The notes beneath the pieces were generated by a model. The model was given only the letters and a program-made list of their open reading frames with translations, made no database searches and was not told where the DNA came from. Shown here one piece after another: positions 11,737 through 46,235 of a stretch of 48,435 nt of DNA (positions are counted from its first letter, which is position 1; each line of letters opens with the position of its first letter). The position numbers were made by a program, and so were the translations under genes. Source of the stretch: Gemmatimonadales bacterium (GTDB taxonomy: Bacteria; Gemmatimonadota; Gemmatimonadetes; Gemmatimonadales; JACORV01); NCBI GenBank assembly GCA_017881505.1, contig JADGQW010000001.1, positions 1 to 48,435 of the forward strand. The letters are read 5' to 3'.

Positions 11737-12504
11737 CTAGAAGCGTCTGCCGAGGATGACCTTGGCGGCCAGGCGGTCGGTCGCGGGGGTGAGTCCGAAG
11801 CCGAGTCCGGCGTTGATCTCCCAGTCGGGGGAGAGGTTGAGCGCGACGACCGGGAAGACCTGCTGCCACTGCGCGTCGGGGGCGTCGAAGCTGCCGAGGG
11901 GGCCGAAGCCGCCGTAGTACTCGACGCCGAGGGTGACGGCCCGCGTGACGTCCACCGTCACCGTCGCGCCGGGCGAGAGCTCCCACCCGCCGGCGCCGCC
12001 CCCCGCGAGGGCACGCTCGAGCGCGGGATTGACCGACCAGTACCACCGCCCGAGGCGCTGGTCCACGATCGGCCGCAGTTCGAGGCTCCACGAATCGCCG
12101 AGGTAGCCGCGGCGCTCGGGGCCCACCTCGGCGGAGAGACTGACGCCCACCGGCCAGTGCCAGGAGGCCGGGACCTGCACCCGGGGCCGGATGTGGGAGC
12201 CGACCACCACCGGCCCCGCGCCCGGCTGCACGGACGTGAAGAGGTAGAAGCCCACCTCGGCCCATCCGCCGAAGCCGTGCGTGACCTCCACGGTCTCGTG
12301 GAAGGCGTGCGCGCTCGAGGCGAGGCCGACGGGCCGCACGCCGTCGAAGGTGAAGTTGCTGTGCAGCTCCAGCATCGTCCGGCCGCGCTCGACCACGTCC
12401 GCACCGTAGACCTGGATCTCGTACGCGCCCTGCGCCGCCGCGCGCGCGGCGAGGAGGGCGAGCGCCAGCGCCGGGAGGACCAGCACCGACCGGACGACCC
12501 GCAT
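11737..12504 (-). CDS. Putative outer-membrane beta-barrel protein of unknown function
   Basis: 255 aa from ATG 12504 with GGAGGAAGG upstream. Signal peptide MRVVRSVLVLPALALALLAARAAA|QG. Alternating hydrophobic beta-strand pattern and a C-terminal Phe (ILGRRF). Confidence 0.6.
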   Translation of the reverse strand: MRVVRSVLVLPALALALLAARAAAQGAYEIQVYGADVVERGRTMLELHSNFTFDGVRPVGLASSAHAFHETVEVTHGFGGWAEVGFYLFTSVQPGAGPVVVGSHIRPRVQVPASWHWPVGVSLSAEVGPERRGYLGDSWSLELRPIVDQRLGRWYWSVNPALERALAGGGAGGWELSPGATVTVDVTRAVTLGVEYYGGFGPLGSFDAPDAQWQQVFPVVALNLSPDWEINAGLGFGLTPATDRLAAKVILGRRF

Positions 12505-12544
12505 GCCGCCTTCCTCCCGCCGGCGCGCCACCGGCCCACGAGAA

Positions 12545-12571
12545 GGGCGGGCCCGCCACGCGAGCCCGCCC
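12545..12571 (-). terminator. GC hairpin downstream of pilC (possible terminator or attenuator, no U-tract)
   Basis: GGGCGGGC-N11-GCCCGCCC, a perfect 8-bp stem, 38 nt after the pilC stop. Confidence 0.3.
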
Positions 12572-12608
12572 GAGGTCCATAGCTCCCGCCGCGGCGGGCG
12601 GCCCGCGC

Positions 12609-13808
12609 CTACTGGACCAGGTTGATCATGTTGAAGATCGGCAGGTACATCGCGATGACCATGCCGCCGACCACGCCGCCCAGGAAGACGATCATCACCG
12701 GCTCCATCGCGGAGAGGAGGTTCGCCACCGCGGCGTCCACTTCCTCGTCGTAGAAGTCCGCGATCTTCGTCAGCATCTCGTCGAGGCCACCGGTCTGCTC
12801 GCCCACGGCGATCATCGAGATGACCATGGGTGGGAAGACCTTCGACTTCTGGAGCGGCGCCGCGATCGTCTCGCCGCCGGCGATCGAGTTCCGCGACTCC
12901 ATCACGGCGTCGTGGATGACCCGGTTGCCCGCCGTCTTCGCCGTGATCTCGAGGCCGTCGAGGATGGACACGCCCGACGCGATCAGGGTGCCGAGGGTGC
13001 GGGTGAAGCGCGACACCGCCGACTTGCGCAGCATGTCGCCAAGCACCGGCGACGACAGCATCAGCTTGTCGAGCATCAGCCGCCCACCCGAAGTGGCGTA
13101 GTACTTCTTGATGCTGAAGACGGCGAGCCCCGCCCCGGCGCCGATGGCCCACCAGAAGTGGATGAGGAAGCTCGACATCGTCATCACGATGCGGGTCGGC
13201 AGCGGCAGCACACCGCCGGCCGACGAGAACATGTTGGCGAACACCGGGATCACGAAGATCAGCAGCACGACGACGCAGATGCCCGCCACCGAGAAGATCA
13301 CGGCCGGGTAGATCATCGCGCCCTTCACCCGCCGCACCAGGGCATCGTTCTTCTCCATGAACACCGCAAGGCGCAGCAGGATCGTGTCCAGGATACCGCC
13401 CGCCTCGCCGGCCGCCACCATGTTCACGTACAGGTCGCTGAACGCCTTGGGGTGCTTGCGCAGCGCGTCGGCGAGGGTCTGGCCGCTCTCGACGTCGTAC
13501 ACCACCGCCTTGGTGACGTCCTTGAGGGCCTTGCTTTCGGTCTGCTCCGCCAGGATGTCGAGCGCCTGCACCAGCGGCAGCCCCGAGTTGATCATCGTGG
13601 CGAACTGCCGCGTGAAGATGACGATGTCGCGCGTGGTGACGCCGCCGCCGAAGGAGAAGTTCAATTGCTTCGGCGCCTGCTGGACCTTCACCACGATCAT
13701 CCGGTTCTTCCGGAGATGCGCGACGACGTCGTTCTCCGACGGCAGGTCGATCGAGCCCGACTGCAGTTCCCCCGTGAGGGTCCGCGCGGTGTAGTTGAAG
13801 ACCGGCAT
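12609..13808 (-). CDS. pilC: Type IV pilus platform protein PilC (GspF family)
   Basis: 399 aa with two GspF repeats (FTRQFATMINSGLPLVQAL and FTRTLGTLIASGVSILDGL) and three TM segments. Strong RBS GAGGAGG. Confidence 0.93.
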   Translation of the reverse strand: MPVFNYTARTLTGELQSGSIDLPSENDVVAHLRKNRMIVVKVQQAPKQLNFSFGGGVTTRDIVIFTRQFATMINSGLPLVQALDILAEQTESKALKDVTKAVVYDVESGQTLADALRKHPKAFSDLYVNMVAAGEAGGILDTILLRLAVFMEKNDALVRRVKGAMIYPAVIFSVAGICVVVLLIFVIPVFANMFSSAGGVLPLPTRIVMTMSSFLIHFWWAIGAGAGLAVFSIKKYYATSGGRLMLDKLMLSSPVLGDMLRKSAVSRFTRTLGTLIASGVSILDGLEITAKTAGNRVIHDAVMESRNSIAGGETIAAPLQKSKVFPPMVISMIAVGEQTGGLDEMLTKIADFYDEEVDAAVANLLSAMEPVMIVFLGGVVGGMVIAMYLPIFNMINLVQ

Positions 13809-13831
13809 CCGTCAGCCTCCTCTGCGCGCCA

Positions 13832-14995
13832 TCAGCGCTTGAGCCCGCCGGTAAGCGGCCGGTCCTTCGGCGCCGCGGGCTTGTCGTCCTCGCCCGGCAC
13901 CGGCTCTCCGATCATCCGCAGGAAATCCGCCGGCTCCGGGGTGGCCCGCAGGCAGTCCTCCAGCGCCACCTCGCGGTTCATGTACAGCTGATAGAGCGAG
14001 TCGTTCAGCGTCTGCATCCCGTACTTCTTCCCCGACTGCATCGACGACTGGATCTGGTGCACCTTGTCGTCGCGGATCAGCGCCCGGATCGCCGGCGTGG
14101 CCACCAGGATCTCGCACGCCATCACCCGGCCCCGCCCCTTCGCCCTGGGCAGCAGCGTCTGCGTGACGATCCCCTCCAGCACGAACGCCAGCTGGGCCCG
14201 CACCTGCGACTGCTGGTGCGCCGGGAAGACGTCGATGATGCGGTTGATCGTCTCCGCCGCCGAGTTGGTGTGCAGCGTCGCGAAGCACAGGTGGCCCGTC
14301 TCCGCGATGGTCAGCCCCGCCTGGATCGTCTCCAGATCCCGCATCTCGCCGATCAGCACCACGTCGGGGTCCTCGCGCAGCGCGTACTTCAGCGCGTTCG
14401 CGAACGACTTCGTGTCGGTGCCGACCTCCCGCTGGTTGACGATGCACCCCTGGTGCCGGTGGATGAACTCGATCGGGTCCTCCACCGTGATGATGTGACC
14501 CTTCCATTCCCGATTGATCTTGTCGATCATCGCCGCGAGGGTCGTGGACTTCCCCGAGCCCGTCGGCCCCGTCACCAGGATCATCCCGCGCGGCCGCTCG
14601 GCGAACTTGGCGACCACCCCCGGCAGCTGCAGCTCCTCGAAGGTCTTCACGCGGAAGGGGATCTGCCGGATCACGATCGAGACGCAACCGCGCTGCTTGA
14701 AGCAGTTGCCGCGGAAGCGCGCCAGGTTCTGGATGCCGAAGGAGAAGTCGAGCTCGTCCTCGGTCTCGAAGCGCTTCTTCTGCTGCTCCGTCAGCACCGA
14801 GTAGGCCAGCTGCAGCGTGTCCTTCGGCGTCAGGACGGTTTCCACCTTGCTGCTCACGATGTCGCCGTCCACGCGGATCTTGGGGCGTTCGCCGGCCGTG
14901 ATATGGAGGTCCGACGCCTCGCGCTCGATCATCTCCTCGAGCAGCGCGCGCAGGTTGACGGTGGTCGCCGGCTGGGCCGGATGGGGGGCGGTCAC
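13832..14995 (-). CDS. pilT: Type IV pilus retraction ATPase PilT
   Basis: 387 aa. ASDLHI motif, Walker A GPTGSGKST, VVLIGEMRD, TGHLCFATLHTN and AIRALIRD, characteristic of PilT/PilU. GTG start 4 nt after the pilB stop. Confidence 0.92.
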   Translation of the reverse strand: MTAPHPAQPATTVNLRALLEEMIEREASDLHITAGERPKIRVDGDIVSSKVETVLTPKDTLQLAYSVLTEQQKKRFETEDELDFSFGIQNLARFRGNCFKQRGCVSIVIRQIPFRVKTFEELQLPGVVAKFAERPRGMILVTGPTGSGKSTTLAAMIDKINREWKGHIITVEDPIEFIHRHQGCIVNQREVGTDTKSFANALKYALREDPDVVLIGEMRDLETIQAGLTIAETGHLCFATLHTNSAAETINRIIDVFPAHQQSQVRAQLAFVLEGIVTQTLLPRAKGRGRVMACEILVATPAIRALIRDDKVHQIQSSMQSGKKYGMQTLNDSLYQLYMNREVALEDCLRATPEPADFLRMIGEPVPGEDDKPAAPKDRPLTGGLKR

Positions 14996-14999
14996 GTGG

Positions 15000-16724
15000 T
15001 CAGCCTTCCGCCGTTTCCTTGACGACTTCCTCGAGCGTGGTCACGCCCTTCTTGATCTTCACGATGCCGTCCATCCGCAGGGTGAGCATGCCGTCCTTGA
15101 CGGCCTGCTGCTGCAGCTCGTTGGTGGAGGCGCCGCGGAGGATCATGCGGCGAAGCTCCTGGGAGAAGGCCATCACCTCGTAGAGGCCCGCGCGGCCCTT
15201 GTAGCCCGACCCGGCGCAGGTCTCGCACCCCTTGCCCTTGTAGAAGGCGACCCCCTCCCACTCCTTCTCCGTGGTGCCGATCGCCTTGAGCTCGTCCTTG
15301 GAGTACTTCACCTCGGCCTTGCAGTCCTTGCAGATGCGCCGCACCAGCCGCTGCGCCACGATCAGGTTCACCGCCGACGACACGTTGAAGGGCTCGATGC
15401 CCATGTCGATCATGCGGGTGATCGTGGACGGTGCGTCGTTGGTGTGCAGCGTCGAGAGCACCAGGTGGCCGGTGAGCGCGGCCTTGATCGCGATGCTGCC
15501 CGTCTCGATGTCGCGGATCTCGCCCACCATGATGATGTTCGGATCCTGGCGCAGGAACGCCTTCAGCGCCGCCGCGAACGTCATCCCGATCTCGTTGCGC
15601 ACCGCGACCTGGTTGATGCCCATCAGGTTGTACTCGACCGGGTCCTCGGCCGTCATGATGTTGACTTCGATCGTATTGACCCGGGACAGCGCCGAGTACA
15701 GCGTCGTCGTCTTCCCCGATCCCGTCGGCCCCGTCACCAGCACCATCCCGTACGGGTTCAGGATCGCCTTCATCAGGTCCGCTTCGGCCTTGGGCTCGAA
15801 CCCGAACTTCGACAGGTCGAGCGTCAGGTTCCCCTTGTCCAGAATCCGCATCACGATCTTCTCGCCGAACAGCACGGGGAGGGTCGAGACGCGGAAGTCG
15901 ATCACCCGCTTGCCCATCTTGAGCCGGATGCGGCCGTCCTGCGGCACCCGCCGCTCGGCGATGTTCAGCGCCGCCAGGATCTTGATGCGGGAGGTGAGGG
16001 CCGCCTTGAGCTTGATCGGCGGCTTCATCACCTCGGAGAGCGCCCCGTCGATGCGGTAGCGCACCCGGATCTCGTGCTCGAACGGCTCGACGTGGATGTC
16101 GGAGGCACCCCGCTTCACCGCGTCCGTGAGGATGGCGTTGATGAGCTTCACCACGGGGGCGTCGTCCGCCATCGCGGCGCCGGCCTGCTCCGCCTCCGCC
16201 TCCTCCTGGACGAGCTCCAGCTCTTCGGACTCCGCGTCCTCCCCCATCTCCTTGAGGAGGGTGTCGAGCTGCGCGTCCACCTGCTCGTAGTACTTCTCGA
16301 TCGCCATCCGCAGGGTGTACTCGCCCGCGATCACCGGGAAGATGTCGAACCGGGTGACGAACTTGAGGTCGTCGATGACGCCGAGGTTGGTCGGATCGGC
16401 CATCGCGACCGTCAGCGTCCGCCCTTCCTTCTTGAGCGGCAGGACGAGGTGCTTGAGCGCGATATCCGCGGGGACCATCTTGATGATCTTCGGGTCCACT
16501 TCGAAGCGCGACAGGTCCACCGCCGGCATCCGGAACTGCCGGGCCAGCATCTTGGTGATCTCGGTCTCCTGTATGAAACCGAGCTTGACCAGGTTGTAGC
16601 CTATCCGGGTACCGTTGGCCCTCTGCTCCTGAAGCGCCTTCTCGAGCTGATCCTTGGTGATCAGCCCTTCCTTGATGAGCAGATCGCCGAGCCGGTCGCC
16701 GGCTGCGGGCGCTGGTGCCGACAT
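15000..16724 (-). CDS. pilB: Type IV pilus assembly ATPase PilB (GspE family)
   Basis: 574 aa. N-terminal T2SSE_N-like domain (LGDLLIKEGLITKDQLEKAL), Walker A GPTGSGKTT, TGHLVLSTLHTN, and a tetracysteine motif CKDC...CETC. Confidence 0.93.
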   Translation of the reverse strand: MSAPAPAAGDRLGDLLIKEGLITKDQLEKALQEQRANGTRIGYNLVKLGFIQETEITKMLARQFRMPAVDLSRFEVDPKIIKMVPADIALKHLVLPLKKEGRTLTVAMADPTNLGVIDDLKFVTRFDIFPVIAGEYTLRMAIEKYYEQVDAQLDTLLKEMGEDAESEELELVQEEAEAEQAGAAMADDAPVVKLINAILTDAVKRGASDIHVEPFEHEIRVRYRIDGALSEVMKPPIKLKAALTSRIKILAALNIAERRVPQDGRIRLKMGKRVIDFRVSTLPVLFGEKIVMRILDKGNLTLDLSKFGFEPKAEADLMKAILNPYGMVLVTGPTGSGKTTTLYSALSRVNTIEVNIMTAEDPVEYNLMGINQVAVRNEIGMTFAAALKAFLRQDPNIIMVGEIRDIETGSIAIKAALTGHLVLSTLHTNDAPSTITRMIDMGIEPFNVSSAVNLIVAQRLVRRICKDCKAEVKYSKDELKAIGTTEKEWEGVAFYKGKGCETCAGSGYKGRAGLYEVMAFSQELRRMILRGASTNELQQQAVKDGMLTLRMDGIVKIKKGVTTLEEVVKETAEG

Positions 16725-16778
16725 GGACGAGGAGTCCCGACGAGGTGGAAGACCGTAACTAGCCTAGAGTTACTCGGA

Positions 16779-16806
16779 ATACTACGGCCGGTACCCCCCC
16801 TGTCAA
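16779..16806 (-). promoter_or_regulatory. Sigma-70-type promoter for pilBTC
   Basis: Minus strand reads TTGACA-N16-TAGTAT. The consensus -35 overlaps the comEA stop codon. It sits in a locally AT-richer island about 55 nt upstream of the pilB ATG. A GTAACT-N7-AGTTAC inverted repeat (16755-16773) lies in the predicted 5' UTR. Confidence 0.5.
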
Positions 16807-17549
16807 GGCGCGCGGAGGAAGGGCCGGAGGCGATCCACGAGGCGCTTTCCGATGCCCGGGACGCGGTCGAGCTCCTCGACCCCGCGAAAGGGGCCGCGCG
16901 CGCTCCGGTCCGCCACGATCCGCCCCGCGAGCGCCGGCCCGACCCCCGGGAGGCAGTCCAGTTCCAGCGCGGTCGCGCTGTTGAGGGGCACCGGGAGTGC
17001 TCCGCAGGAGCCGGCCGGCCTCGCCGGCGGGCGGCCGGGCGTGCCGCCGCCGCCCGGTCCCCCGGTGGTGGCTAGGGGCCGCGCCACCCCGGAGAAGGTC
17101 GCCGACCGCTCGAGACCCGCTCTCAGCCCGGGCCCGACCCCCGGCACGCGCCCCAACCCCTCCAGGCTCCCGAAGGGCCCGTGTGCGTCCCGCTCGTCCA
17201 CGATGCGGCGCGCGAGCTTCGGCCCGACCCTCGGCAGACGCGCGAGCTCGTCCGCGGCGGCCTGGTCCACGTCCACCTTCTCCCCGGGGAGGAGAGGACG
17301 CGAGAGCACCTCGGCGCGGCGGGAACGGGACGCCTGGCGGGCGGGATCGGACCCGCGCAGCTCCGGGGCGAGGACCGAGGCGCCGGGTGGACGGGTGGGC
17401 GCGCGCGCCACGCGCACCACCCCGCCGGCGGCGGCGACGAGGGCGAGGAGCAGGACGGCACGGCGTTCATCGCGGGCAGCCACGGACCACACGGTAAAGC
17501 CGGGCGGCGCTACCGTGGTGGCCGAACGCCGCGGTGTGGAGCCTCTCAA
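16803..17549 (-). CDS. comEA: ComEA-like DNA-binding protein with two helix-hairpin-helix modules
   Basis: Two copies of the ComEA HhH signature: VDVDQAAADELARLPRVGPKLARRIVDERDAHGPFGSLEGLGRVPGVGPGL and LNSATALELDCLPGVGPALAGRIVADRSARGPFRGVEELDRVPGIGKRL. N-terminal TM anchor AVLLLALVAAAGG. The track start is a TTG inside a repeat motif; the true start is probably GTG near 17492 or 17483. Confidence 0.75.
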   Translation of the reverse strand: MRGSTPRRSATTVAPPGFTVWSVAARDERRAVLLLALVAAAGGVVRVARAPTRPPGASVLAPELRGSDPARQASRSRRAEVLSRPLLPGEKVDVDQAAADELARLPRVGPKLARRIVDERDAHGPFGSLEGLGRVPGVGPGLRAGLERSATFSGVARPLATTGGPGGGGTPGRPPARPAGSCGALPVPLNSATALELDCLPGVGPALAGRIVADRSARGPFRGVEELDRVPGIGKRLVDRLRPFLRAP

Positions 17550-17578
17550 CGCCGCGGGGGGGAGCCTGTCAACGCCGC
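17538..17578 (-). repeat. Tandem 18-nt direct repeat (1 mismatch, 23-nt period) at the comEA 5' end
   Basis: Plus strand reads GGAGCCTCTCAACGCCGC (17538-17555) and GGAGCCTGTCAACGCCGC (17561-17578). Minus strand reads GCGGCGTTGA(C/G)AGGCTCC twice. Confidence 0.6.
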
Positions 17579-17591
17579 CGGATGGAGCGGA

Positions 17592-18488
17592 TCAGCGCAC
17601 GAGGGCGAGCACGACCTTCCCGACGTTGGCGAGGGAGGTCGCCGAGAGCTTGTCGGGGGTGTCGGCGGTGGTGTGCCAGTAGGTGTAGTCGAAGTCGATC
17701 ACGTCGGCGGTGTGGATCCCGGCGCCGAGGAGGGGGATGTGGTCGTCGGTCAGGGCGATCCCCTGCACCGGCTTGAAGACGTGGCCGAGGCCGATGTCCT
17801 CGGCGGTCTGCCACACCCGCTGCACGACCTCGGGGGCGCGCTCGAGCGAGTAGCCCTCCTGGGGGAACGCCTGGTCCTTGTCGCCCACCATGTCGAGGAG
17901 GACGGCGTAGAGAGGCCGGTACCCGGTGGGGAGGTGCGCCGCGAAGTAGCGCGAGCCGAGGAGATTGTCGGGCGCGTCGCCCTCGAACGTCCCGTAGTCC
18001 TCGCCGTCGACGAAGAGGAGGTCCACACCCAGGGCAGGGGGCGTGCGCTTCAGCTGATCGGCCACCCCGAGGAGGACGGCGACGCCCGAGGCACCGTCGT
18101 CCGCGCCGGGGACGGGCAGCGTCCGCTTGGCGGGGTCCGGGTCCTGGTCGGCGTGCGGCTTGGAGTCCCAGTGCGCCAGGAAGAGGACCCGGTCCCGCTC
18201 TCCGGGCCGGAAGCGCGCGATGAAGTTCCGGAGGGGGAGGGTGTCGCCCGACGCGGTGACGTGCGTGAAGGACTGGACCTCGACGCTGTCGGCCCGCTGG
18301 CGCAACTGCGCGAGGAGCCAGTCGCCGACGGCCCGGTGCGGCGCCGTGCCGGGGATGCGGGGGCCCGCGGCGACCTGGTACTCGACCCAGCGGAGCGCCT
18401 GGGGGCCGTCGAAGGGCGGCGCCGCCTGGCTGCTCCCCCGGCACGCGACGGCGAGGGCGAGGAACGCGAGGGCCACGGAGCGCATCAT
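17592..18488 (-). CDS. Lipoprotein, M28-fold metalloenzyme; glutaminyl-peptide cyclotransferase-like (Bacteroidetes PgQC type)
   Basis: 298 aa from ATG 18488 (ATGA overlap with the sprA stop). Lipobox LALAVAC. Motifs FLAHWDSKPHADQDPDP, PGADDGASGVAVLLGVA, LLFVDGEDYG and DFDYTYWHTTADT match M28/QC metal-ligand blocks. QC versus aminopeptidase cannot be decided by eye. Confidence 0.6.
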   Translation of the reverse strand: MMRSVALAFLALAVACRGSSQAAPPFDGPQALRWVEYQVAAGPRIPGTAPHRAVGDWLLAQLRQRADSVEVQSFTHVTASGDTLPLRNFIARFRPGERDRVLFLAHWDSKPHADQDPDPAKRTLPVPGADDGASGVAVLLGVADQLKRTPPALGVDLLFVDGEDYGTFEGDAPDNLLGSRYFAAHLPTGYRPLYAVLLDMVGDKDQAFPQEGYSLERAPEVVQRVWQTAEDIGLGHVFKPVQGIALTDDHIPLLGAGIHTADVIDFDYTYWHTTADTPDKLSATSLANVGKVVLALVR

Positions 18489-24400: not shown

Positions 24401-24634
24401 CCGGGCGAGTCGCGCGCGCAGATCCGCTGCCCAGTCCCGCGCCACGGTCGCCGCGTCGGGACGCCGCGCCGCGAGGCGCCCCCCGGGGGCGATGTCGGCG
24501 GGGAGCACCAGGCGCAGCGGGTCCCGCCGCAGCCGCAGGCGGCGCACGCCCGCGAGCGTGTCGGGTTGCTGCGCGGCGAGGCGGGGAGCGGAGAGGAGGG
24601 CGAGGAGCGCGAGCGCGAGGAGCGATCGCGCCAC
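18485..24634 (-). CDS. sprA: SprA/Sov-family T9SS outer-membrane translocon
   Basis: 2049 aa with signal peptide ...SAPRLAA|QQ. The N-terminal block HLNVDYDSKREFEASNNIQVYYQGLEDEVLRRVDLGNVTFAVP...FGVQVQGQVGALDFTGIFAQQKGN matches the conserved SprA_N signature as I recall it. Giant beta-rich protein. GTG start. Confidence 0.85.
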   Translation of the reverse strand: MARSLLALALLALLSAPRLAAQQPDTLAGVRRLRLRRDPLRLVLPADIAPGGRLAARRPDAATVARDWAADLRARLARRDAAMWRGLLLGGDRSLASVPAAAPAAPPQGPSPMPSEAPPQPQVISRIADLDLLMSARFELRFDQMKNLRCTPAEANDLGSGCRNQLNPPSFDPQFNVRSGGVVGQRVHLNVDYDSKREFEASNNIQVYYQGLEDEVLRRVDLGNVTFAVPPSRFITAGIPSNNFGVQVQGQVGALDFTGIFAQQKGNVVRGRTFTIGDRTVQPLDRAVADRDFEPLRFFFVVDPRTIPGYPGVDVLGLTQAVLPASGQVTQVRVYRRRSRLNTAGTAEQNLSGISAVALRNDSPQRAGPFPWELLIEGRDYFLDASGLWIGLAARLDQDDYLAVSYVTASGDTVGTFPAKAAAGRVDTLRLIYEPRRDADVPTFRYEMRNFYRLGAQGDVVRETARLRILVGESERPATGAATFLAQLGLALQTDATTLDQFNRVFPRSRDPGSGAPIKDYYIVFPKLQPFADSTALPAEFRNDSLYRTPTYLLRTQGPTPLYTLQFHYDAQGGDNRAVLSLGGFQIREGSEVITAAGRPLTRNVDYTINYEVGQVTFTAPDSLFQGPTSVSVQYEEQPTFAIAPTSIYGLETRYDFGEHGSLTALGLLQRQRTTFTRPPLGFEPSSHFVGGITGNFRFAPDGLTRLVQALPFVRTDAPSAVTLDAELATSRPSPNQLGVAYVETFEEEGGTFLSLGENLWEYGSRPGSARGLEAHGIDPVLGFQDQDAVPFTWQNLIQTSTGIVQFRPNEIDPSIVVQGAGTTYEPVLWDLMYTDTVGGLPDANTGRIRWYVPHTDGPRWRSITQPLSATGVDLSRVEYLELWVYEDNQRTARAAGATLAFDFGTVYEDAVDFLPNRLAVTAQGDTVFSGRRRAHEGRLQTERDTLTGAWNASVNDNGILGDVADSILNTTTGVMEHAVPLCESRMSRGLVVYPWGDLGEHCTRHNGQVDSDDLNGDGHLDTLITATGESYFRYVFPIGDDRYYVRDGATVAGTDSAAAGRWRLYRIPFRSDTIQVGAPNIRLIQQLRMTLVVPGGGTPEHAVYFALARVKLVGAPWVKRAATPIPGLDGAAGSAHGEVVASVVSTENQADLGYVPPPGVTDAGESTTGNLSVGQVQINERSLRLIGFDVRPGERAESFFQFPEGARNFLGYRQLRVWARGRGAGWDRGQLAFYIKVAQDENNFYLFRAPARTTTWDPEAVVDFGHWLDLRAQIEASFLRGDPPNVARARSCGADTLAYVACDGPYLVQVRNPGVSPPNLAAVRELAVGFVRDSGPALDSAELWVDDIRLAQAVNTPGYAGTLSLHVSASDVADVNISMTRRDAQFRQIGEQPPYLGTTQLAVATTVRLEKLGLERLGLTAPLTVRVDRSSQDPYFLSGTDVLAGPIDGLRRPRSSQTNVSLVLRRTRRGALWWQRLLVDNLTVSVSGARSATTTQLGQGTSSLLNLRGDYAATPAERSFRYVPGFLVRLVRALPAFISGSSFARGLEDARLTWTPVSVRFSTTYNHTAAEQQTFRVPVATSSDTLATSVSMVQAALQQDVSVDLRPLRSLSGGFTWTQVRDLRNYGDSTTIGVLTRQDSRRLLGMNVGFERSRVVATRLTWQPALANWLRPRASLASQFNLNRDATAPSAQRVDGDTAGAFTIPLAFQNQRTTDLGLALDLTALARGLSRDSSLLTKLFDRLNPVDVSTRSGLRSQFSQRGVTPGLGYQLALGGVDAFRAYGGQPADAARQDHEVRLAGGLRLPLGLSLASDYLRQESTSWARRADGQSQMRQTEIDWPSVTGRWVWSPRQPLVRAVLTSVSASASYRERATQTVQSALLAGLPGGSSATGDVTTSQSTRSWPLSLTLNWAPRVITTFSYSDMRSASDQSGNVVQSDRNDVGADLSFSFRVPPELIPLRSDVRTSLRYSNSVSTGCIARAGDSTCVSISDSRRRQMNLTMDTDMPPNVSAGLGISYIVTEDAHANRKFSQFVFTASVTVNFSAGGSR

Positions 24635-27480: not shown

Positions 27481-30400
27481 CTAGATCGTGTACCGGGCCC
27501 CGAACTGCATCTGCCACCGCGAGGCGTTGATGTTCACCGCGCGGTACGTCGGCAGTGACAGCGCGTACTTCCCGCGGCCGCTGGCGGCATCGTAGCCCGT
27601 CAGGCGGAGCAGGTTGGCGTTCTCGAACCCGGAGGTCGAGTTCACCGTGCCCCAGTTGTTGTCGAGCATCTGCCCGAGGAGGCGCGGGACGTTGAAGACG
27701 TCGAGCGAGATCTCGAGCGACTGCCCGTTCATCGTCGAGATCGTCTTCGAGACGCGGGCGTCGAGGAACGTCTGCCACGGGTTCCGGCAGCTGTTCCGCG
27801 ACATGATCCGGCCGCGCTGCGCGTTGAGGCAGGGGTCGGAGTTGATGTACGCGTTCAGCTTGTTCCAGTCCGACGGGGTCGCGAGGATGATGTCGGAGCT
27901 GTACGTCGGCACGTACACCAGGTCGTTCGCCGTGATGCCGTCGGCGTTCGCGTCGTTCGAGACCACGTAGCCGTACGGCGTGCCCGACTGGACCGTCAGC
28001 CGGAGGCCGGCGCTGATCTTGAAGGGCAGGTTGAAGGAGCCGTTCGCCACGAAGCGGTGCGGCCGGTCGAAGGCCGAGCGCCGCAGGTAGCGGTTGTTGA
28101 GCGAGCCGTCGAGCGTCGTGAACTGGTAGTTCGACAGCGCGACGCTCGAGCCCAGGGTGATGTAGTCCATCGCGCGGGAGTAGGTGTAGCCGAGGCTGAA
28201 CTCCATCGCGTTGCTGAACCGCTTCTGCAGCTGCAGGGTCCCGGACCAGGCCCGGTCCCCGCTCCGGTTCGAGTGCTCCAGCACCGTCGCGAACGCCGTG
28301 CTGACCTTCGACACGGCCACGCTGCCGGTGCCCGAGATCGTTCCGTACATGATGCGGTTGCCCTCGCCCACGCTCAGCGACTGCGGGCCCCGCAGGTTCG
28401 TGTCGGTGATGTAGTAGTTGTTGATGTACCGGGTGAACAGGAAGTCCACCGTCCCGACGACGCCCCAGGGCAGCGTGTGGTCCGCGCCCAGCGCGAAGCG
28501 CAGCGTCTGCGGGAACTTGAAGTTCGGGTCGTAATACACGACGGCGGCCGTCGGCGGCGTGAGCGACGCGCTCCCCGTGCCGCGGCTGCAGGCTGCCGGC
28601 ATGTTGTTCACGTCGGTGACGAAGTTCGGCACCGTGTCGAGGGTGCTGGCGCCGAGGTTGCCGTCGCAGGTCAGCGTCGCCTGCTCGAGGCCGGTGTTGC
28701 CGTAGGCGTTCGAGACCCACACGTACGCCGGGCGGCCCGTGAAGACGCCCACGCCGCCGCGCAGCACCGTGCTGCCGTCGCCGGTGATGTCGAGGTTGAA
28801 GCCGAGGCGCGGCGACCAGAGGCCGGCCATGGACAGCTTGCTGGTGTTGATGCCACCGGGGGCGTTCGCGGAATCGAACGCCGCCGCCGTGCCGCCGTGC
28901 GCCACGAAGAAGAGCGAGTCGAGCCGCACGTTGTGCGACGGGCTCGAGGGCAGCGTCGGCTTGTCGTACCGCAGGCCGGCCGTCACCGTCAGGCGTGGGG
29001 TGGGCGTCCAGCGGTCCTGGATGTAGGCGCCGAGCTGGTTCACCTTGAACTTCGCCTCGCCGCCGTTGGGCCGGAGGAGGAGCGCGATCTGGTACTGGTA
29101 GGGCGAACCGGCCGCCAGCGAGTCCGCGTTCGCGAACCAGTACGTGCCATACGCGTTCTGCAGGAACAGGTTGTCGAAGTTGAAGAACTCGTTGTGCGTC
29201 CCCACGGTGATCAGGTGCTGCCCCAGCGGGAACGTCACGTTGTCCGTGACCTCGAGGATCTTCTGCTCGAGGAAGTTCGCCATCGAGGAGCGCTCGGCGC
29301 CCGCCGCGAGGATCGTCGTGCAGCTCGCGGGGTTCGCCAGGCCGGCGCACCGGTCCCCGTTCACGACCACTCGGGGGATGTTGTTGGGCAGGACCCGGTT
29401 GTCGCTCACCGTCGTGTAACCGACGATCAGCTCGTTGGTGAACCGGCTCAGGAAGGTCGAGGTGAGGTTCAGCCGCGTGCTGGCCGTCTTGCTGAGGAAC
29501 TGGTAGCCGCTGTTCGAGAGCTGGTAGCCGTTGTTCGCCGTGCCGGGCGCGTGCGAGAGGTTGTCCGTCGACGCGACGACCGAGTTGTGCGAGACGTCGA
29601 AGTGCGTCGAGCCGCCCAGCTCACCCGACAGCTTCACCAGGATGTTGGAGTCGGGGTTCTTCTGCGTCGGGCTCTCGGGGCCGCCGGCGCGGAAGCCGTA
29701 GGTGTTCGTCATGATGCTGTCGACGCGCTGCGCCGTGTTCCAGCGGATCCCGACGCCCACCGAGTCGGCGCCGCCCGTGGTGTCCGGCGTGATCACGCCC
29801 AGCGAGGAGAAGGGCGACGACTGCCGCGAGAGGTCCACGACGGTGAAGAAGTGGAGCTTGTCGCGGATGATCGGGCCGCCGAAGCTGAAGCCGTACTGGG
29901 CCTTCTGGGTCGTCGTGGGCTTGAAGAGGAGGCCCGTCGAGTCGGTCCAGTTGCCGATCCAGTGCTGGTCGGTGTAGTACCCGAACACCGTGCCCCCGAA
30001 CCGGTTCGTCCCGGAGCGCGTCACCACGTTCACGATGCCGCCCGTGAAGCCGCCCTGCCGCACGTCGAACGGCGCCATCAGGACCTGGAACTCCTTCACC
30101 GCCTCGACGGAGATCGGCCGCGCGTTCGCCTGCCCGCCCGGCGTGCCGCTCGAGGCCAGACCGAACAGGTCGTTGTTCACCGCGCCGTCGATCTGGATGT
30201 TGTTGAACCGGTTGTTCAGGCCGCCCACCGACGTGCCCACCACCTGCGGCACGTTCGAGATGAAGTCGGTGAAGTTCCGGCCCAGCGTCGGGAGGTTGAG
30301 GATCGCGCTGTCCGACACCGACGAGCTCGCGCCCGTCCGCGCCGCCGAGACCAGCGGGTTCTCCTCGTTCACCGTCACGTCGAGGGCGCCGAGCTCCACC

Positions 30401-30762
30401 GCCGCCTGCGGCAGCCGCAGGTCGACTTCCGCCATCTGGCCGAGGGTGAGGCGCATCGCCTCCGTCCGCGTCTGCCGATAGCCGATCGCCCGCGCCTCGA
30501 AGGTGTACCGGCCGACCGCAATATTCTCGATGTTCCACGCGCCACCGGCACGGGTGCGGCCCTGGTAGCGCTGGCCCGTCGTGACGCTGATCGCGGTCAC
30601 CACCGCGCCCTCGATCGGGTTGCCGCTGTCGTCCAGGACGCGACCGCGCGCCGATGCGCTCGTCACGCCTTGCGCGAAGGCCGCCGGCACCGCTGCACAC
30701 GCCAACACGGCGAGCACGGCGACGACGCGGATCCACGCGCTTCGCACTGAGTCACTTCGCAT
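27481..30762 (-). CDS. TonB-dependent receptor with N-terminal carboxypeptidase-regulatory-like domain (Oar-like)
   Basis: 1093 aa from ATG 30762 (GGAG upstream). Signal peptide ...AAVPAAFA|QG. CarboxypepD_reg-like RGRVLDDSGNPIEGAVVTAISVTTGQ. Plug-like segment NLPTLGRNFTDF...VQIDGAVNND and a long beta-barrel. Confidence 0.85.
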   Translation of the reverse strand: MRSDSVRSAWIRVVAVLAVLACAAVPAAFAQGVTSASARGRVLDDSGNPIEGAVVTAISVTTGQRYQGRTRAGGAWNIENIAVGRYTFEARAIGYRQTRTEAMRLTLGQMAEVDLRLPQAAVELGALDVTVNEENPLVSAARTGASSSVSDSAILNLPTLGRNFTDFISNVPQVVGTSVGGLNNRFNNIQIDGAVNNDLFGLASSGTPGGQANARPISVEAVKEFQVLMAPFDVRQGGFTGGIVNVVTRSGTNRFGGTVFGYYTDQHWIGNWTDSTGLLFKPTTTQKAQYGFSFGGPIIRDKLHFFTVVDLSRQSSPFSSLGVITPDTTGGADSVGVGIRWNTAQRVDSIMTNTYGFRAGGPESPTQKNPDSNILVKLSGELGGSTHFDVSHNSVVASTDNLSHAPGTANNGYQLSNSGYQFLSKTASTRLNLTSTFLSRFTNELIVGYTTVSDNRVLPNNIPRVVVNGDRCAGLANPASCTTILAAGAERSSMANFLEQKILEVTDNVTFPLGQHLITVGTHNEFFNFDNLFLQNAYGTYWFANADSLAAGSPYQYQIALLLRPNGGEAKFKVNQLGAYIQDRWTPTPRLTVTAGLRYDKPTLPSSPSHNVRLDSLFFVAHGGTAAAFDSANAPGGINTSKLSMAGLWSPRLGFNLDITGDGSTVLRGGVGVFTGRPAYVWVSNAYGNTGLEQATLTCDGNLGASTLDTVPNFVTDVNNMPAACSRGTGSASLTPPTAAVVYYDPNFKFPQTLRFALGADHTLPWGVVGTVDFLFTRYINNYYITDTNLRGPQSLSVGEGNRIMYGTISGTGSVAVSKVSTAFATVLEHSNRSGDRAWSGTLQLQKRFSNAMEFSLGYTYSRAMDYITLGSSVALSNYQFTTLDGSLNNRYLRRSAFDRPHRFVANGSFNLPFKISAGLRLTVQSGTPYGYVVSNDANADGITANDLVYVPTYSSDIILATPSDWNKLNAYINSDPCLNAQRGRIMSRNSCRNPWQTFLDARVSKTISTMNGQSLEISLDVFNVPRLLGQMLDNNWGTVNSTSGFENANLLRLTGYDAASGRGKYALSLPTYRAVNINASRWQMQFGARYTI

Positions 30763-38564: not shown

Positions 38565-38581
38565 CCCCGCTCGCGCCCGCC

Positions 38582-38761
38582 GTGGCGTGGGCCCAGCACG
38601 TCCATCCCGCCGCCGACAACCACCGCCTCCACACCTCGATGTGGTGGAGCGCGCTCCTCATCGGCCTGATGCCCTACGCGCTCGCCCTCCTCGTGCTGGG
38701 CGTGGTCCTCTATCAGCGCCGGCGGCGCACGCGGAAGGGACCCGATGACGGTTCCGCCTGA
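38582..38761 (+). CDS. Possible small His-rich single-TM protein
   Basis: Open frame with very high GC3. Translation VAWAQHVHPAADNHRLHTSMWWSALLIGLMPYALALLVLGVVLYQRRRRTRKGPDDGSA. No clear RBS, and the start is uncertain (GTG 38582 or ATG near 38638). Its 3' end overlaps the response-regulator start. Confidence 0.3.
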   Translation: MAWAQHVHPAADNHRLHTSMWWSALLIGLMPYALALLVLGVVLYQRRRRTRKGPDDGSA

Positions 38762-39128: not shown

Positions 39129-39149
39129 CGCTCCCGCAGCGCGCCCCGC

Positions 39150-41537: not shown

Positions 41538-41558
41538 CCTTGCCCGCCCACTGACGGA

Positions 41559-41593
41559 CGAACGCCCCCGGCCGACGTGGCCGGGGGCGTTCG
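41559..41593. terminator. Bidirectional GC hairpin between the convergent ATPase and lipoprotein genes
   Basis: CGAACGCCCCCGGCC-GACGT-GGCCGGGGGCGTTCG, a perfect 15-bp stem. No U-tract. Confidence 0.6.
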
Positions 41594-41620
41594 CATGACC
41601 TCACGCCGAACCGTCTCCTA

Positions 41621-43558
41621 CTAGTAGATCACCAGCCGGTACGGCCGCGTCGCGCCGCCCGTGCCGTATGCGTTCACATAGATGTTGTACGAACCCGCCG
41701 CCAGGTTCGTCACCGTGAGGGCCTCCGGGTTGGTGGACCCGGCGCTCTGAGCCGCCGCCGTGTTGCAGCCCACGTCGCAGAGGTAGAGATCAAGGTCCGG
41801 GTCGTTCGCCGTGCCGGCGGAACTGTTGGTCCCGAACCACTGCAGCGAGATATGGACGGTGCGCGCGCTCGCCAGCGTGAAGCTGAAGAAGTCGTCGGCG
41901 TCCGACGCGTCGTTCTCGGCCCCGTACAGGATGAACGGGTTGCCGGCGGTCGCGGTCAGGAAGGTGATGGTGACCGAGTCCGGCGCGTTGTTGGCCGGCT
42001 CGTTCAGCTCACCCGAAGGGCTTGCGGTGATCACGACGTTACCCGAGGTGGCGAGGCTCGGGATGATCGTCCCGCCGACGTTGACCCTGGAGATCGAGAT
42101 CGGCGTGGAACTCGGCCGCTTGGCGATGACGTACACGCTGTCCAACGTCGTGGCGGAGGCGGCGAACTTCGTCACGATCCACGCCGGCGCGCCGCCGATC
42201 GTCACCACCGAGCCGGTGTCGAGCTTCGTGATCGCGGTGCCGAGCACCCTGACGGTGTCAAGCAGCTTGCCAGCCGTCACCACCGTCCCGCCGAACGCCG
42301 ACTGGTTCATCGTGTAGCTGGCGGGTGACTTGACGGAGATGGACGCAGTTCCGACGAGCACGCGTGTGACCGTGACCACCCCCGTGTAATTCACCGGGGA
42401 AATGACCTTGAGGCTCACGGAATCCCTGGCGAGCACGATGGCCGCGCTGGCTCCGAACGACACGCCGGACCCGCTCGATCCGGTGGTGAACATCGAGCCC
42501 GGCTGCGCGGTCAGGAACATGGTATCGCCGACCTGGGTGATCGTGCCCCCGAAGGTCGGTGCGTTCATGGTGTAGCTGGTGAGCGCGGGGAGGGTCACCA
42601 ACGCCGCGCCGACGTGCACGTTCGTGACCGTGATCCCGCCTGTGTACGCTCTCGGCGAGAAGACCTTGAGGCTCACCGCGTCATTGAAGAACACGATCGC
42701 TGCGGTGGTATCGAACATCACCACGGACCTGCTGGATCCCGTACTGAGCGTCGACCCCGCCTGCGCGGACACGAACATCGTGTCGCCCACCTGCGTCACC
42801 GTGCCGCGGAACCGCGACCTGGCGACCAGGACGCTGTCGCTCTGCAGGCTGTCGATGTAGATGCTGCCGACCTCCGTCGGACCGGTCCACGTGAGATTGG
42901 TCACCCACGGGCGACCGCGGAACGGCTTCACCGGCGCGAGCACCTTGATAGCCGTGCCGCTACGCGAGATGATAGAAGTGGTGTCCGACCCGAAATGGAC
43001 GCTGGTCGAGTCGGTGGTCGTCAGGTTGCTCCCGGCCGTCGTGGTGATGGTCAAGGTGTCGCCGGCGGAGAACACGAACGCCGGAATCGCCGGCGGGCCG
43101 GCGATGCCGGGGATGGTGTCCGCGCTCGCCGTTCCCGAGACCACCGGGGTCGCGAGGGCGGTCAGGCGCGCCGGGAGGTTGAGGACGCGCACGCTGGACG
43201 TGAGACCGCCGTACGTCGCAATGATGTGCGCCACGCCGCCGCCCGGGCCGACCGCCAGGACGAACGCCTTGGCGAACACGCCATAGGGGATGGGCTTGGA
43301 GGTATCGCTGGCGACGGTGGCGACGGCGGCGTTGTCCGTGGTCCACGTCAGCCCCACGGCATCGTAGCTGTTGCCCTGGTCGTCCTTCACCTCCGCCTGG
43401 ATGGACAGACTATCGCCGGTCACCAGCGTCATGGCGGTGCGCGTCACCTCGATGCGCGTCGCGCCGTTCCGCAGGGAACTGGTCGGATCCTTGAAGCATG
43501 CCACGGCGCCAGCGGCCACCACCGCCGCCGCAAGCACAATCGAACTCAGATGCTTCAT
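41621..43558 (-). CDS. Surface/periplasmic lipoprotein: Big_2-like domain, about four tandem Ig/IPT-like repeats and a C-terminal PPC (pre-peptidase C-terminal) domain
   Basis: 645 aa. Lipobox AGAVAC. Big_2-like LVTGDSLSIQAEVKDDQGN. About 85-aa internal repeats (GTVTQVGDTMFVSAQAGS... and GTITQVGDTMFLTAQPGS...). PPC-like tail DDFFSFTLASARTVHISL...DLDLYLCD...AGSYNIYVNAYG. Confidence 0.75.
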   Translation of the reverse strand: MKHLSSIVLAAAVVAAGAVACFKDPTSSLRNGATRIEVTRTAMTLVTGDSLSIQAEVKDDQGNSYDAVGLTWTTDNAAVATVASDTSKPIPYGVFAKAFVLAVGPGGGVAHIIATYGGLTSSVRVLNLPARLTALATPVVSGTASADTIPGIAGPPAIPAFVFSAGDTLTITTTAGSNLTTTDSTSVHFGSDTTSIISRSGTAIKVLAPVKPFRGRPWVTNLTWTGPTEVGSIYIDSLQSDSVLVARSRFRGTVTQVGDTMFVSAQAGSTLSTGSSRSVVMFDTTAAIVFFNDAVSLKVFSPRAYTGGITVTNVHVGAALVTLPALTSYTMNAPTFGGTITQVGDTMFLTAQPGSMFTTGSSGSGVSFGASAAIVLARDSVSLKVISPVNYTGVVTVTRVLVGTASISVKSPASYTMNQSAFGGTVVTAGKLLDTVRVLGTAITKLDTGSVVTIGGAPAWIVTKFAASATTLDSVYVIAKRPSSTPISISRVNVGGTIIPSLATSGNVVITASPSGELNEPANNAPDSVTITFLTATAGNPFILYGAENDASDADDFFSFTLASARTVHISLQWFGTNSSAGTANDPDLDLYLCDVGCNTAAAQSAGSTNPEALTVTNLAAGSYNIYVNAYGTGGATRPYRLVIY

Positions 43559-43591
43559 GATGCCCCTCGCTCAGGTTTCGTGGAACCTGCT

Positions 43592-45019
43592 TTAATCCGG
43601 CTCGGAACTCGTTGTAGTCGACAACCCCAGGAACCGCTTCACATCGTCCGCACCTTCGCTGCCGATCAGGCTCTCCCACTCCTGCCGTCCCGGCTCGCGC
43701 CGGTCGTTCGTGGCGATGAGCTCGTAGTCCCCCATGCTGTTGCGATCGAGGAACACGTACCAGTAACCCCGGTCCCTGGTGTATTTCCAGACTTCATACG
43801 CTCTCGGCGATGCGACCGGACGCTGCAGCATCTCCTCCGGTCTGCCGTGGCGCAGGTAGATGCGGCCGCGGTCGGTGCGCCACCCGGGCATCGCCGCCAC
43901 CCGGCCCTGCTGGAAGGCGCTGTTCGCGTACGCCACCTGGCGATAGAAGTCCGCCATCGCCTGGTTGGTCGCACTTCCCGGCGTCGGATTGCGGCGCCGC
44001 CAGAATTCCCGAAGGAACCGGCGCTTCCCGTCCACCGAGAGGTTGCCGTAGACGCCCCCCTCGGACCGCGCGTCGAGGATCAACTCCACAGGCGCGTACA
44101 GCGTGTCGAGCCGCGCTTCCGAGGCGCCCGCGAACGGATCGTCCGCCGCTCCCGCGGGCGTGGCAGCGAGATCCGCCGCCGCGACCGTCAGAGCCCCCAT
44201 CCGGAACGGCGCATCCGCCACCAGCGAGCTGTCACCCAACCGCATGCGGAGCCGCAGGCGGTACGACCCTTCGGGGAGCCCGGTCAGGTCGATCGAACCC
44301 CGGGTGATGCCTCCCTGCGGGCCCACCTGGACGGCGCGGGCGGGCGTCGAGACGATGCTCCGTCCGTCGTTGCCGACCACGTCCACGCGCAACTCCCCGG
44401 CCGGCGCGGCCCCCGCCCACGGGTACACCTCCGCGTAGTACGTCAACGCGGCTTCCGTGGGACTGAGGCGCGGCACCGGTGCGGTGCGCATCGCCAGGCC
44501 GGCCCGCCGGAACTCTCCCGGCTCGATCATCTCCGTATCGGAGACGGCCCGGCTGGCGCCGGTCCCGAGGGCGAGATCGGACATCGCCGGGCGGCCGGAG
44601 AAGGCCCGCACCTCGACGTCCCGTTCGATCGTCGTGCCGCTCTCGGGGACCGCCCGCAGGCGTACGCGGTACAGACCGGGCGCGGCGGAGAACTCGAACG
44701 ACTCCATCGCCGTCGCACCCGCGGCGCCCGCCACCGTCGGCGGCACCGCCCGCGCCCACCCTTCGCGCTGCAACTCCAGTCCGGCGCTGTCGAACACCGC
44801 CACCTCGAACCGATAGCGGACCTGCTGTCCCGCCACCGCGGGCAGCGCCGACAGACGCAACTCACACACCCCTTCGATTGTCGTGGTGCCGCTCGCCGGC
44901 CGGTACAGCCGGACCGCGCTCACCGTCAGCGGCTGGTCGCCGCCCTGCTGCCACGTGGCCCCGGCGCCTGCGAGCACCATCAGCGCGCCGACCGCCGGTG
45001 CCACCCAAGACGTTCTCAT
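43592..45019 (-). CDS. GWxTD domain-containing protein
   Basis: 475 aa with an N-terminal signal or anchor. The C-terminal block contains the PGWRTDRGRIYLRHGRPEE signature (GWxTD) and YEVWKY. Confidence 0.8.
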   Translation of the reverse strand: MRTSWVAPAVGALMVLAGAGATWQQGGDQPLTVSAVRLYRPASGTTTIEGVCELRLSALPAVAGQQVRYRFEVAVFDSAGLELQREGWARAVPPTVAGAAGATAMESFEFSAAPGLYRVRLRAVPESGTTIERDVEVRAFSGRPAMSDLALGTGASRAVSDTEMIEPGEFRRAGLAMRTAPVPRLSPTEAALTYYAEVYPWAGAAPAGELRVDVVGNDGRSIVSTPARAVQVGPQGGITRGSIDLTGLPEGSYRLRLRMRLGDSSLVADAPFRMGALTVAAADLAATPAGAADDPFAGASEARLDTLYAPVELILDARSEGGVYGNLSVDGKRRFLREFWRRRNPTPGSATNQAMADFYRQVAYANSAFQQGRVAAMPGWRTDRGRIYLRHGRPEEMLQRPVASPRAYEVWKYTRDRGYWYVFLDRNSMGDYELIATNDRREPGRQEWESLIGSEGADDVKRFLGLSTTTSSEPD

Positions 45020-45037
45020 CGCATCCTGACCGCCGGG

Positions 45038-45061
45038 GGCGGGGCCGCGAACGGCCCCGCC
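45038..45061 (-). terminator. GC hairpin after the porV-like gene
   Basis: GGCGGGGCC-N6-GGCCCCGCC, a perfect 9-bp stem, 20 nt after the stop. Confidence 0.4.
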
Positions 45062-45080
45062 GCCGGCGCAAGTTCCACGA

Positions 45081-46235
45081 CTACCAGTTGAGGGCCACGC
45101 CGAGCATGTTCACGCCGCCCAGCAGCCCGTAGTTCTTGTACGCGTAATCGAACCCGATGCCGAAGCCGCCCTTCGCGTACCGCAGCCCGCCGCCCGCCGA
45201 GAGGCGATACTGCCGCCCCTTCAACGAGCTGGTGAACCCCGCGTAGTCCGTGGACGTCGGGTCGGGCGCGGTCATGTTGTCGTCGCCGGCGAACGTGCCA
45301 CCGAGACGGCCGGCCACCGAGAAGCCCGACTGCCCCAGCGCCATGTTGTACTCCCCGGCGAAGCTGAAGCCCGGCTGGCTGTTGTTCGGCTGATTGAACT
45401 CACCGAGCAGGGTGAGCCGGCTGAGCGAGGTGGTGAACGCGTCGTAGGCCAACGCGATCCGGAACATCACCGGCAGGGACCATGCCTTCGTGGTCAGCTG
45501 CGCCTTGGCCGGCTCCTGCGGGATCTGGTCCTGCCCGGCCGGCGGCTGCCGCGTGTACGTCACGACCAGCGGCTGCCCCGAGTGGGACATGTTCGTGCCC
45601 AGGTTCGAGATCACGAACGCGGCCCGCACGGCGCGGCCGGCCAGCGTGGAGTGGAAGCTCGTCCCGAAATCCACCGCGAACGCGCTGCCGGAGACATCCC
45701 CCAAATGGTCGGACACGACCTTGGCCGTGATGCCGGCCGAGAACCGGTCCGAGAACTGCTGCGCGTACGTCCCGGCGATGGCGGTCTCGGACACGCTGTA
45801 CACCTGTCCGGCCAGCCCCTGAGGATCCTCCACCGTGTACACGGGCTGGTTACTGAACCCGAAGGTCGTGACCGACAGCCCGAACGCCCGGGAGCCGCCC
45901 CCGAAGGGGACGCCGAAGGCGCCGAAGGTGTAGTTGGTCCCGGCGATGTACTTCATGTTGCTCGCCATCGCGCCCGGACGCTCCATCAGCGCCAGGCCCG
46001 CCGGGTTGTAGTACATCGAGCCGAGATCGTTCGCGAGCGCCGCGTACGCCCCGCCCAGCGCCGCGCCACGTGCCGTGGCGGGGATGAGCAGGAACTCCGC
46101 GGCCGTCGTCCCGAAGGCGACGTTGTTCGACGGCACCGACGTGATCGTCGGGTTCGTCTGCGCTCGGCCCACCGTACTGACGGCCAGGATGGCCACCAGC
46201 ACCGCGGCGCCGATCTGCAAAGAGCCTCTCCTCAT
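45081..46235 (-). CDS. porV: PorV/PorQ-family T9SS outer-membrane beta-barrel
   Basis: 384 aa. Signal peptide ...STVGRA|QT. The family signature FLLIPATARGAALGGAYAALANDLGSMYYNPAGLA is recalled from PorV/LptO-type proteins. C-terminal aromatic residue (LNW). GGAGG RBS. Confidence 0.7.
   Translation of the reverse strand: MRRGSLQIGAAVLVAILAVSTVGRAQTNPTITSVPSNNVAFGTTAAEFLLIPATARGAALGGAYAALANDLGSMYYNPAGLALMERPGAMASNMKYIAGTNYTFGAFGVPFGGGSRAFGLSVTTFGFSNQPVYTVEDPQGLAGQVYSVSETAIAGTYAQQFSDRFSAGITAKVVSDHLGDVSGSAFAVDFGTSFHSTLAGRAVRAAFVISNLGTNMSHSGQPLVVTYTRQPPAGQDQIPQEPAKAQLTTKAWSLPVMFRIALAYDAFTTSLSRLTLLGEFNQPNNSQPGFSFAGEYNMALGQSGFSVAGRLGGTFAGDDNMTAPDPTSTDYAGFTSSLKGRQYRLSAGGGLRYAKGGFGIGFDYAYKNYGLLGGVNMLGVALNW

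Follow-up and report, generated by a model that had tools for sequence, protein, structure and literature searches.

In Porphyromonas gingivalis and other Bacteroidetes, most substrates of signal peptidase I (SPI), across protein classes, carry Gln directly after the cleavage site, a bias known as the Q-rule, and a periplasmic lipoprotein glutaminyl cyclase (QC; in P. gingivalis PgQC, PG2157) accompanies it. Two unrelated cyclase lineages exist and mostly replace each other in Bacteroidetes (PMC5837995). The survey of Bochtler et al. 2018 (PMC5837995) covered Bacteroidetes, Chlorobi, Spirochaetes, Chlamydiae, and Cyanobacteria and left Gemmatimonadetes unmentioned; outside Bacteroidetes, it listed Q-values of 77% for Ignavibacterium album, 55% for Chloroherpeton thalassium, and 40 to 67% for a few cyanobacteria, as outliers “with no obvious pattern.” Szczesniak et al. 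2023 (PMC10653852) described the Q-rule as exclusive to Bacteroidetes, again with Gemmatimonadota unmentioned, and our literature search found no paper joining Gemmatimonadota with glutaminyl cyclase or pyroglutamate. Here, we examined a 48,435-nucleotide stretch of DNA from a Gemmatimonadales bacterium (GenBank assembly GCA_017881505.1, contig JADGQW010000001.1), referred to as the window, which encodes a QC-like lipoprotein next to an SprA-like translocon of the type IX secretion system (T9SS). The window spans contig C202 from end to end; no other contig of this 2.8-Mb, 289-contig assembly with a GC content of 72% is longer, and the nearest relatives of its genes belong to metagenome-assembled genomes (MAGs) labelled Gemmatimonadales or Gemmatimonadota, placing the organism outside Bacteroidetes. 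We consider it likely, with a probability of about 80%, that Gemmatimonadota follow a Q-rule of their own in which a lipoprotein cyclase caps exported N termini.

The earlier note on this DNA had counted four unambiguous SPI substrates in the window, namely, a putative outer membrane (OM) β-barrel protein, SprA, a TonB-type receptor, and a PorV-like protein, all with Gln at position +1, and reading the N termini directly gave the same result (Table 1). The two lipoproteins have Cys instead, also as claimed. A scan of the contig for signal-peptide-like N termini returned no additional clear SPI substrate, the other matches being membrane anchors, multipass proteins, and a prepilin, so that the count given in the note is fair. 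At the 8 to 17% Gln(+1) found in our negative controls, such a result has a probability of about 1e-3 or less. It is what the Gln(+1) frequency of this genome predicts and not a chance run.

The +1 residue was then tabulated across the assembly. A home-made codon-usage finder called 2563 genes, which together occupy 93% of the genome; a seed based on GC at third codon positions (GC3) served for the +1 tabulation, and families were assigned from NCBIfam and Pfam profile matches. Sec signal peptides were recognized by a heuristic that looks for positive charge in the n-region, then a hydrophobic core free of charged residues, and beyond it a small-x-small site; lipobox matches and proteins with more membrane segments were excluded. 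The lipobox pattern is over-inclusive and flagged even the TonB-type receptor of the window, through a “VLAC” within its h-region. With a site model aware of the + side of the cleavage site, Gln(+1) was found in 46% of 443 loose candidates and in 80 of 114 strict candidates (70%). Scoring blind to the + side gave about 16 to 20% Gln(+1), as the first or second most frequent residue (the first in the runs that gave 19 to 20%), with a proteome background of 2.7%; because Ala-rich signal peptides offer several A-x-A sites in a row, blind choice dilutes the signal, and it was used as a lower bound only. In 90 loose candidates drawn at random, nearly all true-looking signal peptides were followed by Gln (about 85% by eye, a subjective estimate), while the non-Gln cases were mostly cytoplasmic or anchor false positives. 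As a site-free statistic, we also set the frequency of Gln behind small-x-small motifs of the c-region against that behind the same motif in protein interiors, which gave a ratio of 4.8x for this genome.

All controls were run with identical code. A 400-kb sample of Parabacteroides bouchesdurhonensis, the positive control from the phylum of the published Q-rule, had Gln(+1) in 41% of loose and 58% of strict candidates, with a site-free ratio of 5.8x. The negative controls, 400 kb each of Escherichia coli K-12 and of Sinorhizobium meliloti pSymB (63% GC), had 8% (with Ala as the most frequent +1 residue) and 17% in the loose set and ratios of 1.8x and 1.5x, respectively; pooled, their strict candidates reached 15% (5/34), and the difference from the strict set of this genome is clear (Fisher p = 8e-9). 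The genome of the window thus resembles the positive control and differs from the negatives, and the low values of pSymB indicate that high GC is not the source of the Gln signal. The genome-wide +1 distribution, which the earlier note had named as the test able to refute its proposal, is strongly enriched in Gln, at a level equal to that of the Bacteroidales control in the same pipeline and far above the two negative controls. Ten other Gemmatimonadota samples gave site-free ratios of 3.6 to 11x. As a side observation, Gln and Glu at +1 are both mildly raised in pSymB (positions 100 to 500 kb; 13 to 17% each), so that the 8% of E. coli cannot be taken as the level of every ordinary bacterium.

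Sets of exported proteins defined by family membership bypass the signal-peptide classifier, and here Gln(+1) was present in 22 of 23 cases. It was carried by 12 of the 13 Plug or CarboxypepD_reg (TonB-type) proteins with a complete, non-lipoprotein N terminus, at A-x-A/Q sites (the slash marks the predicted cleavage), and by all 10 exported peptidases of the M28 family. Altogether, 17 M28-peptidase matches were found in the 2.8-Mb genome, at least 10 of which have a signal peptide (contigs C243, C179, C163, C225, C276, C79, C255, and C193). Gln-first mature proteins thus occur across classes, including receptors, M28 peptidases, SprA, PorV-like and GWxTD proteins, and many unrelated proteins of the random sample. 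We estimate that roughly 70% or more of the true SPI substrates of this organism start with Gln after signal peptides ending in small-x-small, mostly A-x-A.

The same residue is conserved in orthologues from related genomes. In at least 37 of 80 related Gemmatimonadota loci, a full-length sprA immediately precedes the QC gene, and 33 of these 37 SprA proteins have Gln(+1), while their signal peptides and first mature residues are otherwise widely different. All 11 readable PorV-like orthologues are likewise Gln-first. For the GWxTD-domain protein, the earlier note had regarded the ATW-QQ boundary as ambiguous, which holds for its own sequence; the orthologues now favor a cut at ATW/QQ, since all 11 readable ones (L335-L351) have Gln at the boundary, directly before a conserved PL.VSAVRFY block, and we conclude that this boundary very probably falls under the Gln rule as well. 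Six unoriented loci were left out of the GWxTD reading. Residue -1 of the GWxTD proteins varies among A, G, P, R, and W and is often one of the last four. These are unusual for SPI at this position, and either cleavage tolerates them in this lineage or the GWxTD proteins go through another form of processing. In three deep families of the phylum with a GC content of 44 to 58% (f10-f12), 15 of 18 readable receptor N termini have Gln(+1). Two receptors of family f12, L185 and L186, have Gly in place of Gln before a conserved TTGK (…SHA/GTTGK and …LRG/GTTGK) and are exceptions in a Gln-first family.

The earlier note had also pointed to a QC-like gene in the window, and its product is indeed an orthologue of the characterized bacteroidal type II QCs, i.e., the animal- and bacteroidal-type enzymes with an M28 fold. 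Along its full length, it matches the solved QCs at E values of about 1e-54 to 1e-62 (PdQC 3tc8, 5e-62; PgQC 6qql, 3.4e-61; TfQC 6qro, 1.8e-58; BtQC 4fuu, 7e-54) with about 45 to 50% identity, whereas the E values are about 1e-10 for animal QCs and 4.9e-6 for the closest aminopeptidase chain; the Pfam match is PF04389 (E 7e-33). With these enzymes (PgQC being also represented by 7cje), it shares membership of the M28 alpha/beta fold family, a length of about 300 residues, the Asp/Asp/His zinc ligands, the Asp-Gly pair, and a Trp before the His. According to the alignment, D131, D164, and H272 correspond to the PgQC ligands Asp149, Asp183 (specific to bacteroidal enzymes), and His299, G132 to Gly150, W271 to Trp298, and E163 to the catalytic Glu (E182), the single-zinc ligands and the other PgQC residues being those described by Taudte et al. 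2021 (PMC7948796). The protein from this 72% GC, soil-type lineage differs from PgQC by a 7-residue deletion before the WH motif, into which Phe294 of PgQC falls in the alignment. Its N terminus is that of a predicted lipoprotein, MMRSVALAFLALAVAC/RG, with the lipobox recognized by pattern only. It is the only type II QC gene of its genome at E ≤ 1e-10, and the unrelated type I QC (PF05096), a five-bladed β-propeller of the plant/bacterial kind known from Flavobacteriia and Xanthomonas, is absent there.

A cyclase gene is present in nearly all sampled members of the phylum. Type II QC was detected in 127 of 151 sampled Gemmatimonadota and type I QC in 35 of 151; 109 genomes have type II only, 18 both, 17 type I only, and 7 neither, which leaves 144 of 151 with a cyclase. 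Type I was found in 71% of the genomes without type II but, where type II is present, in only 14% (p = 4.9e-8). Strict mutual exclusion of the two types is rejected by the 18 genomes that have both, so that their distribution is complementary only. In the genomes with type I alone, the enzyme is a predicted lipoprotein in all six readable cases, and the Gln bias is kept: unbiased samples of 200 to 400 kb from two complete single-contig genomes, G067 (4,636,964 bp) and G064, gave 43% and 40% Gln(+1), respectively. Strict filters drop many true signal peptides and leave small numbers in samples of this size, which were therefore judged by eye. Where type II is missing, type I usually takes its place and the rule is retained. 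No other indirect evidence speaks as strongly for cyclization, rather than another M28 activity, as the activity that selection maintains, since the function was apparently kept while the enzyme family changed.

These features describe a known system, a Q-rule with its cyclase, in a phylum for which there was no published case. As in P. gingivalis and its phylum, Gln follows the SPI site in most substrates and across classes, and a periplasmic lipoprotein cyclase is drawn from one of two unrelated lineages; the phylum is different, the cyclase gene is translationally coupled to sprA, and pyroglutamate is here the predicted product. Its occurrence outside Bacteroidetes is not wholly unprecedented given the sporadic high Q-values mentioned above. 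Those were outliers, whereas the rule described here appears throughout a phylum, as far as its orders and classes were sampled, and is accompanied by cyclase genes. The question raised by the earlier note of a Q-rule outside Bacteroidetes can thus be answered in the affirmative for a gemmatimonadotal organism with a close orthologue of the characterized bacteroidal cyclases. In the mechanism we propose, proteins exported by Sec would be cut by SPI behind A-x-A at the predicted sites and thereby expose Gln, which the periplasm-anchored lipoprotein QC, judging by its orthology, would convert to pyroglutamate; the blocked N terminus would then resist aminopeptidases and protect envelope and secreted proteins, as work in P. 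gingivalis suggests (PMC10653852). Such protection would fit the at least 10 exported M28 peptidases of this small genome, since so many exported enzymes of the aminopeptidase family agree with a need for blocked N termini. With mostly Gln-first exported proteins and a membrane-anchored cyclase encoded next to sprA, pyroglutamate capping very probably works in Gemmatimonadota too.

Several points weigh against this reading. The cleavage sites come from a home-made heuristic and not from SignalP or LipoP, and the loose set is rich in false positives; the + side-aware picker favors Gln where several A-x-A sites are possible, and blind choice gives only 16 to 20% in this Ala-rich genome. Small samples from three relatives (G142, G058, and G061) reached only 17 to 22% in the automatic count, although on visual inspection Gln followed most signal peptides that looked convincing. 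On the enzymatic side, our literature search returned no proteomic or biochemical report of pyroglutamate for any Gemmatimonadota, and M28-fold QCs cannot be separated from aminopeptidases by active-site residues alone (PMC5837995). Finally, three MAGs without a detectable cyclase of either type, which are 95 to 96% complete, still have Gln(+1), and a fourth (G086) has too few convincing sites to tell. Either the Gln bias does not visibly vanish without a cyclase or the gene was simply not assembled; at this completeness, the three MAGs that keep the bias provide no clean negative.

The alternative that survives best, and that we nonetheless regard as unlikely, is that Gln(+1) is a genuine preference, e.g., of the SPI of this lineage, unaccompanied by proteome-wide cyclization, and that the M28-fold gene encodes an aminopeptidase or an enzyme with few substrates. 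It can draw on the three cyclase-less MAGs, on the shared active site of QCs and aminopeptidases (PMC5837995), and on the silence of the proteomic literature. Set against these are the far greater closeness of the window protein to proven QCs (E 1e-61) than to the best aminopeptidase chain (5e-6), the presence of the Asp ligand specific to bacteroidal QCs and of the Asp-Gly pair, and the usual presence, where type II is missing, of a type I lipoprotein cyclase, an enzyme without known peptidase activity. We consequently favor the Q-rule with cyclase capping over a bare cleavage-site preference.

The arrangement of the cyclase gene raises another alternative. The ATG of the QC gene overlaps the stop codon of sprA by 4 bases (18485-18488, ATGA; junction ATGATG), as a result of which the two genes are very probably cotranslated. 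Gln(+1) or pyroglutamate could thus be a sorting or assembly mark for the T9SS or for OM biogenesis instead of a general protection, which would explain a QC in the sprA operon and agrees with the conservation of the pair in at least 37 loci and with the Gln-first SprA and PorV-like proteins. We consider a sorting mark very improbable: Gln was found in every exported class examined (peptidases, receptors, and others), experiments in P. gingivalis opposed a role in T9SS targeting (PMC5837995), the rule holds in phylum members that have a type I QC, and an equal Gln(+1) frequency in periplasmic proteins without any contact with the T9SS is already suggested here. The notion that the Gln signal arises artificially from Ala richness and high GC, from wrong start codons, and from a picker that prefers A/Q, for which the lower figure of blind site choice (16 to 20%) and the many false positives among loose candidates might speak, is largely refuted and almost certainly wrong, given the 13 to 17% of 63% GC pSymB and its site-free ratio of 1.5x against 4.8x here, the same rule in phylum members with 44 to 58% GC, the 22 of 23 family-defined proteins, and the retention of Gln in orthologues despite divergent signal peptides.

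With general capping of exported N termini as the preferred reading, two details are added to the known system: the coupling of QC to sprA, and the retention of the rule under two cyclase types of complementary distribution. A broader scenario, which we put forward tentatively and on the whole doubt, is that the Q-rule and its cyclase did not arise within Bacteroidetes but are ancestral to the wider radiation of the Fibrobacteres-Chlorobi-Bacteroidetes (FCB) group and Gemmatimonadota, that the cyclase function has been kept through repeated type I/type II swaps, and that the conserved coupling of QC to sprA reflects a functional dependence of the T9SS and OM machinery, of which the Gln-first SprA and PorV are parts, on pyroglutamate capping. 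In the literature, the Q-rule has been put down to the proteolytic way of life of species from mouth and gut. Its presence, with both lineages of lipoprotein cyclase, in a second phylum made up mostly of soil and freshwater bacteria means that the trait has a longer history than assumed or evolves more readily, and that it is not tied to host-associated proteolysis. Consequences would extend to the prediction of signal peptides and cleavage sites in phyla known only from MAGs, to N-terminal proteomics, where blocked N termini matter, and to the heterologous expression of envelope proteins from Gemmatimonadota. Through the sprA-QC operon, a connection of type IX secretion with N-terminal capping can also be put to the test, for which cultured Gemmatimonas species, which carry the type I enzyme, could serve as a non-pathogenic system.

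Table 1. Features of the window relevant to the Gln(+1) count, with predicted processing sites (a slash marks the predicted cleavage or mature boundary)
Feature	Position	Strand	N-terminal site	Gln codon	Family matches and remarks
Type IV pilin-like gene	3-368	-	…KGFTLIELLIVVVIIGILAAIAIP…		Prepilin-peptidase substrate, left out of the SPI count
Putative OM β-barrel protein, 264 aa	11737-12531	-	...LLAARAAA/QG	12430-12432	C terminus ...GRRF
ComEA-like helix-hairpin-helix protein	16803-17492	-	N-terminal membrane anchor		Directly downstream of the QC gene, same strand
QC-like lipoprotein, 298 aa	17592-18488	-	LALAVAC/RG		
SprA-like T9SS translocon, 2049 aa	18485-24634	-	...SAPRLAA/QQ	24569-24571	PF14349 SprA_N, E 1.1e-9, above cut-off; very large predicted OM protein
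TonB-dependent-receptor-like OM protein, N-terminal CarboxypepD_reg	27481-30762	-	...AVPAAFA/QG	30670-30672	PF25183, E 8.7e-66; PF13620, E 4.9e-17; PF00593, E 3.4e-5
Lipoprotein, C-terminal PPC domain	41621-43558	-	lipobox AGAVAC/F		PF04151, E 1.4e-7; signal peptidase II substrate, not a Q-rule substrate
GWxTD-domain protein	43592-45019	-	...GAGATW/QQGGDQPLTVSAVRLY	44948-44950	TIGR04514, E 7.5e-22
PorV/PorQ-family OM protein	45081-46235	-	...AVSTVGRA/QT	46158-46160	NF033709 PorV_fam, E 3.6e-40, above cut-off; same window as sprA

The first of the four SPI substrates in Table 1 gave no match in Pfam, NCBIfam, or PDB, and its assignment as a putative OM barrel follows from its sequence pattern. 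Among the type II QC genes of the phylum, a few occur as split or paired pieces (G138:C4:819-1686, G102:C68 and C129, and G042:C143), and in G138, a second QC copy is broken into two overlapping frames; these pieces may be pseudogenes or assembly breaks.

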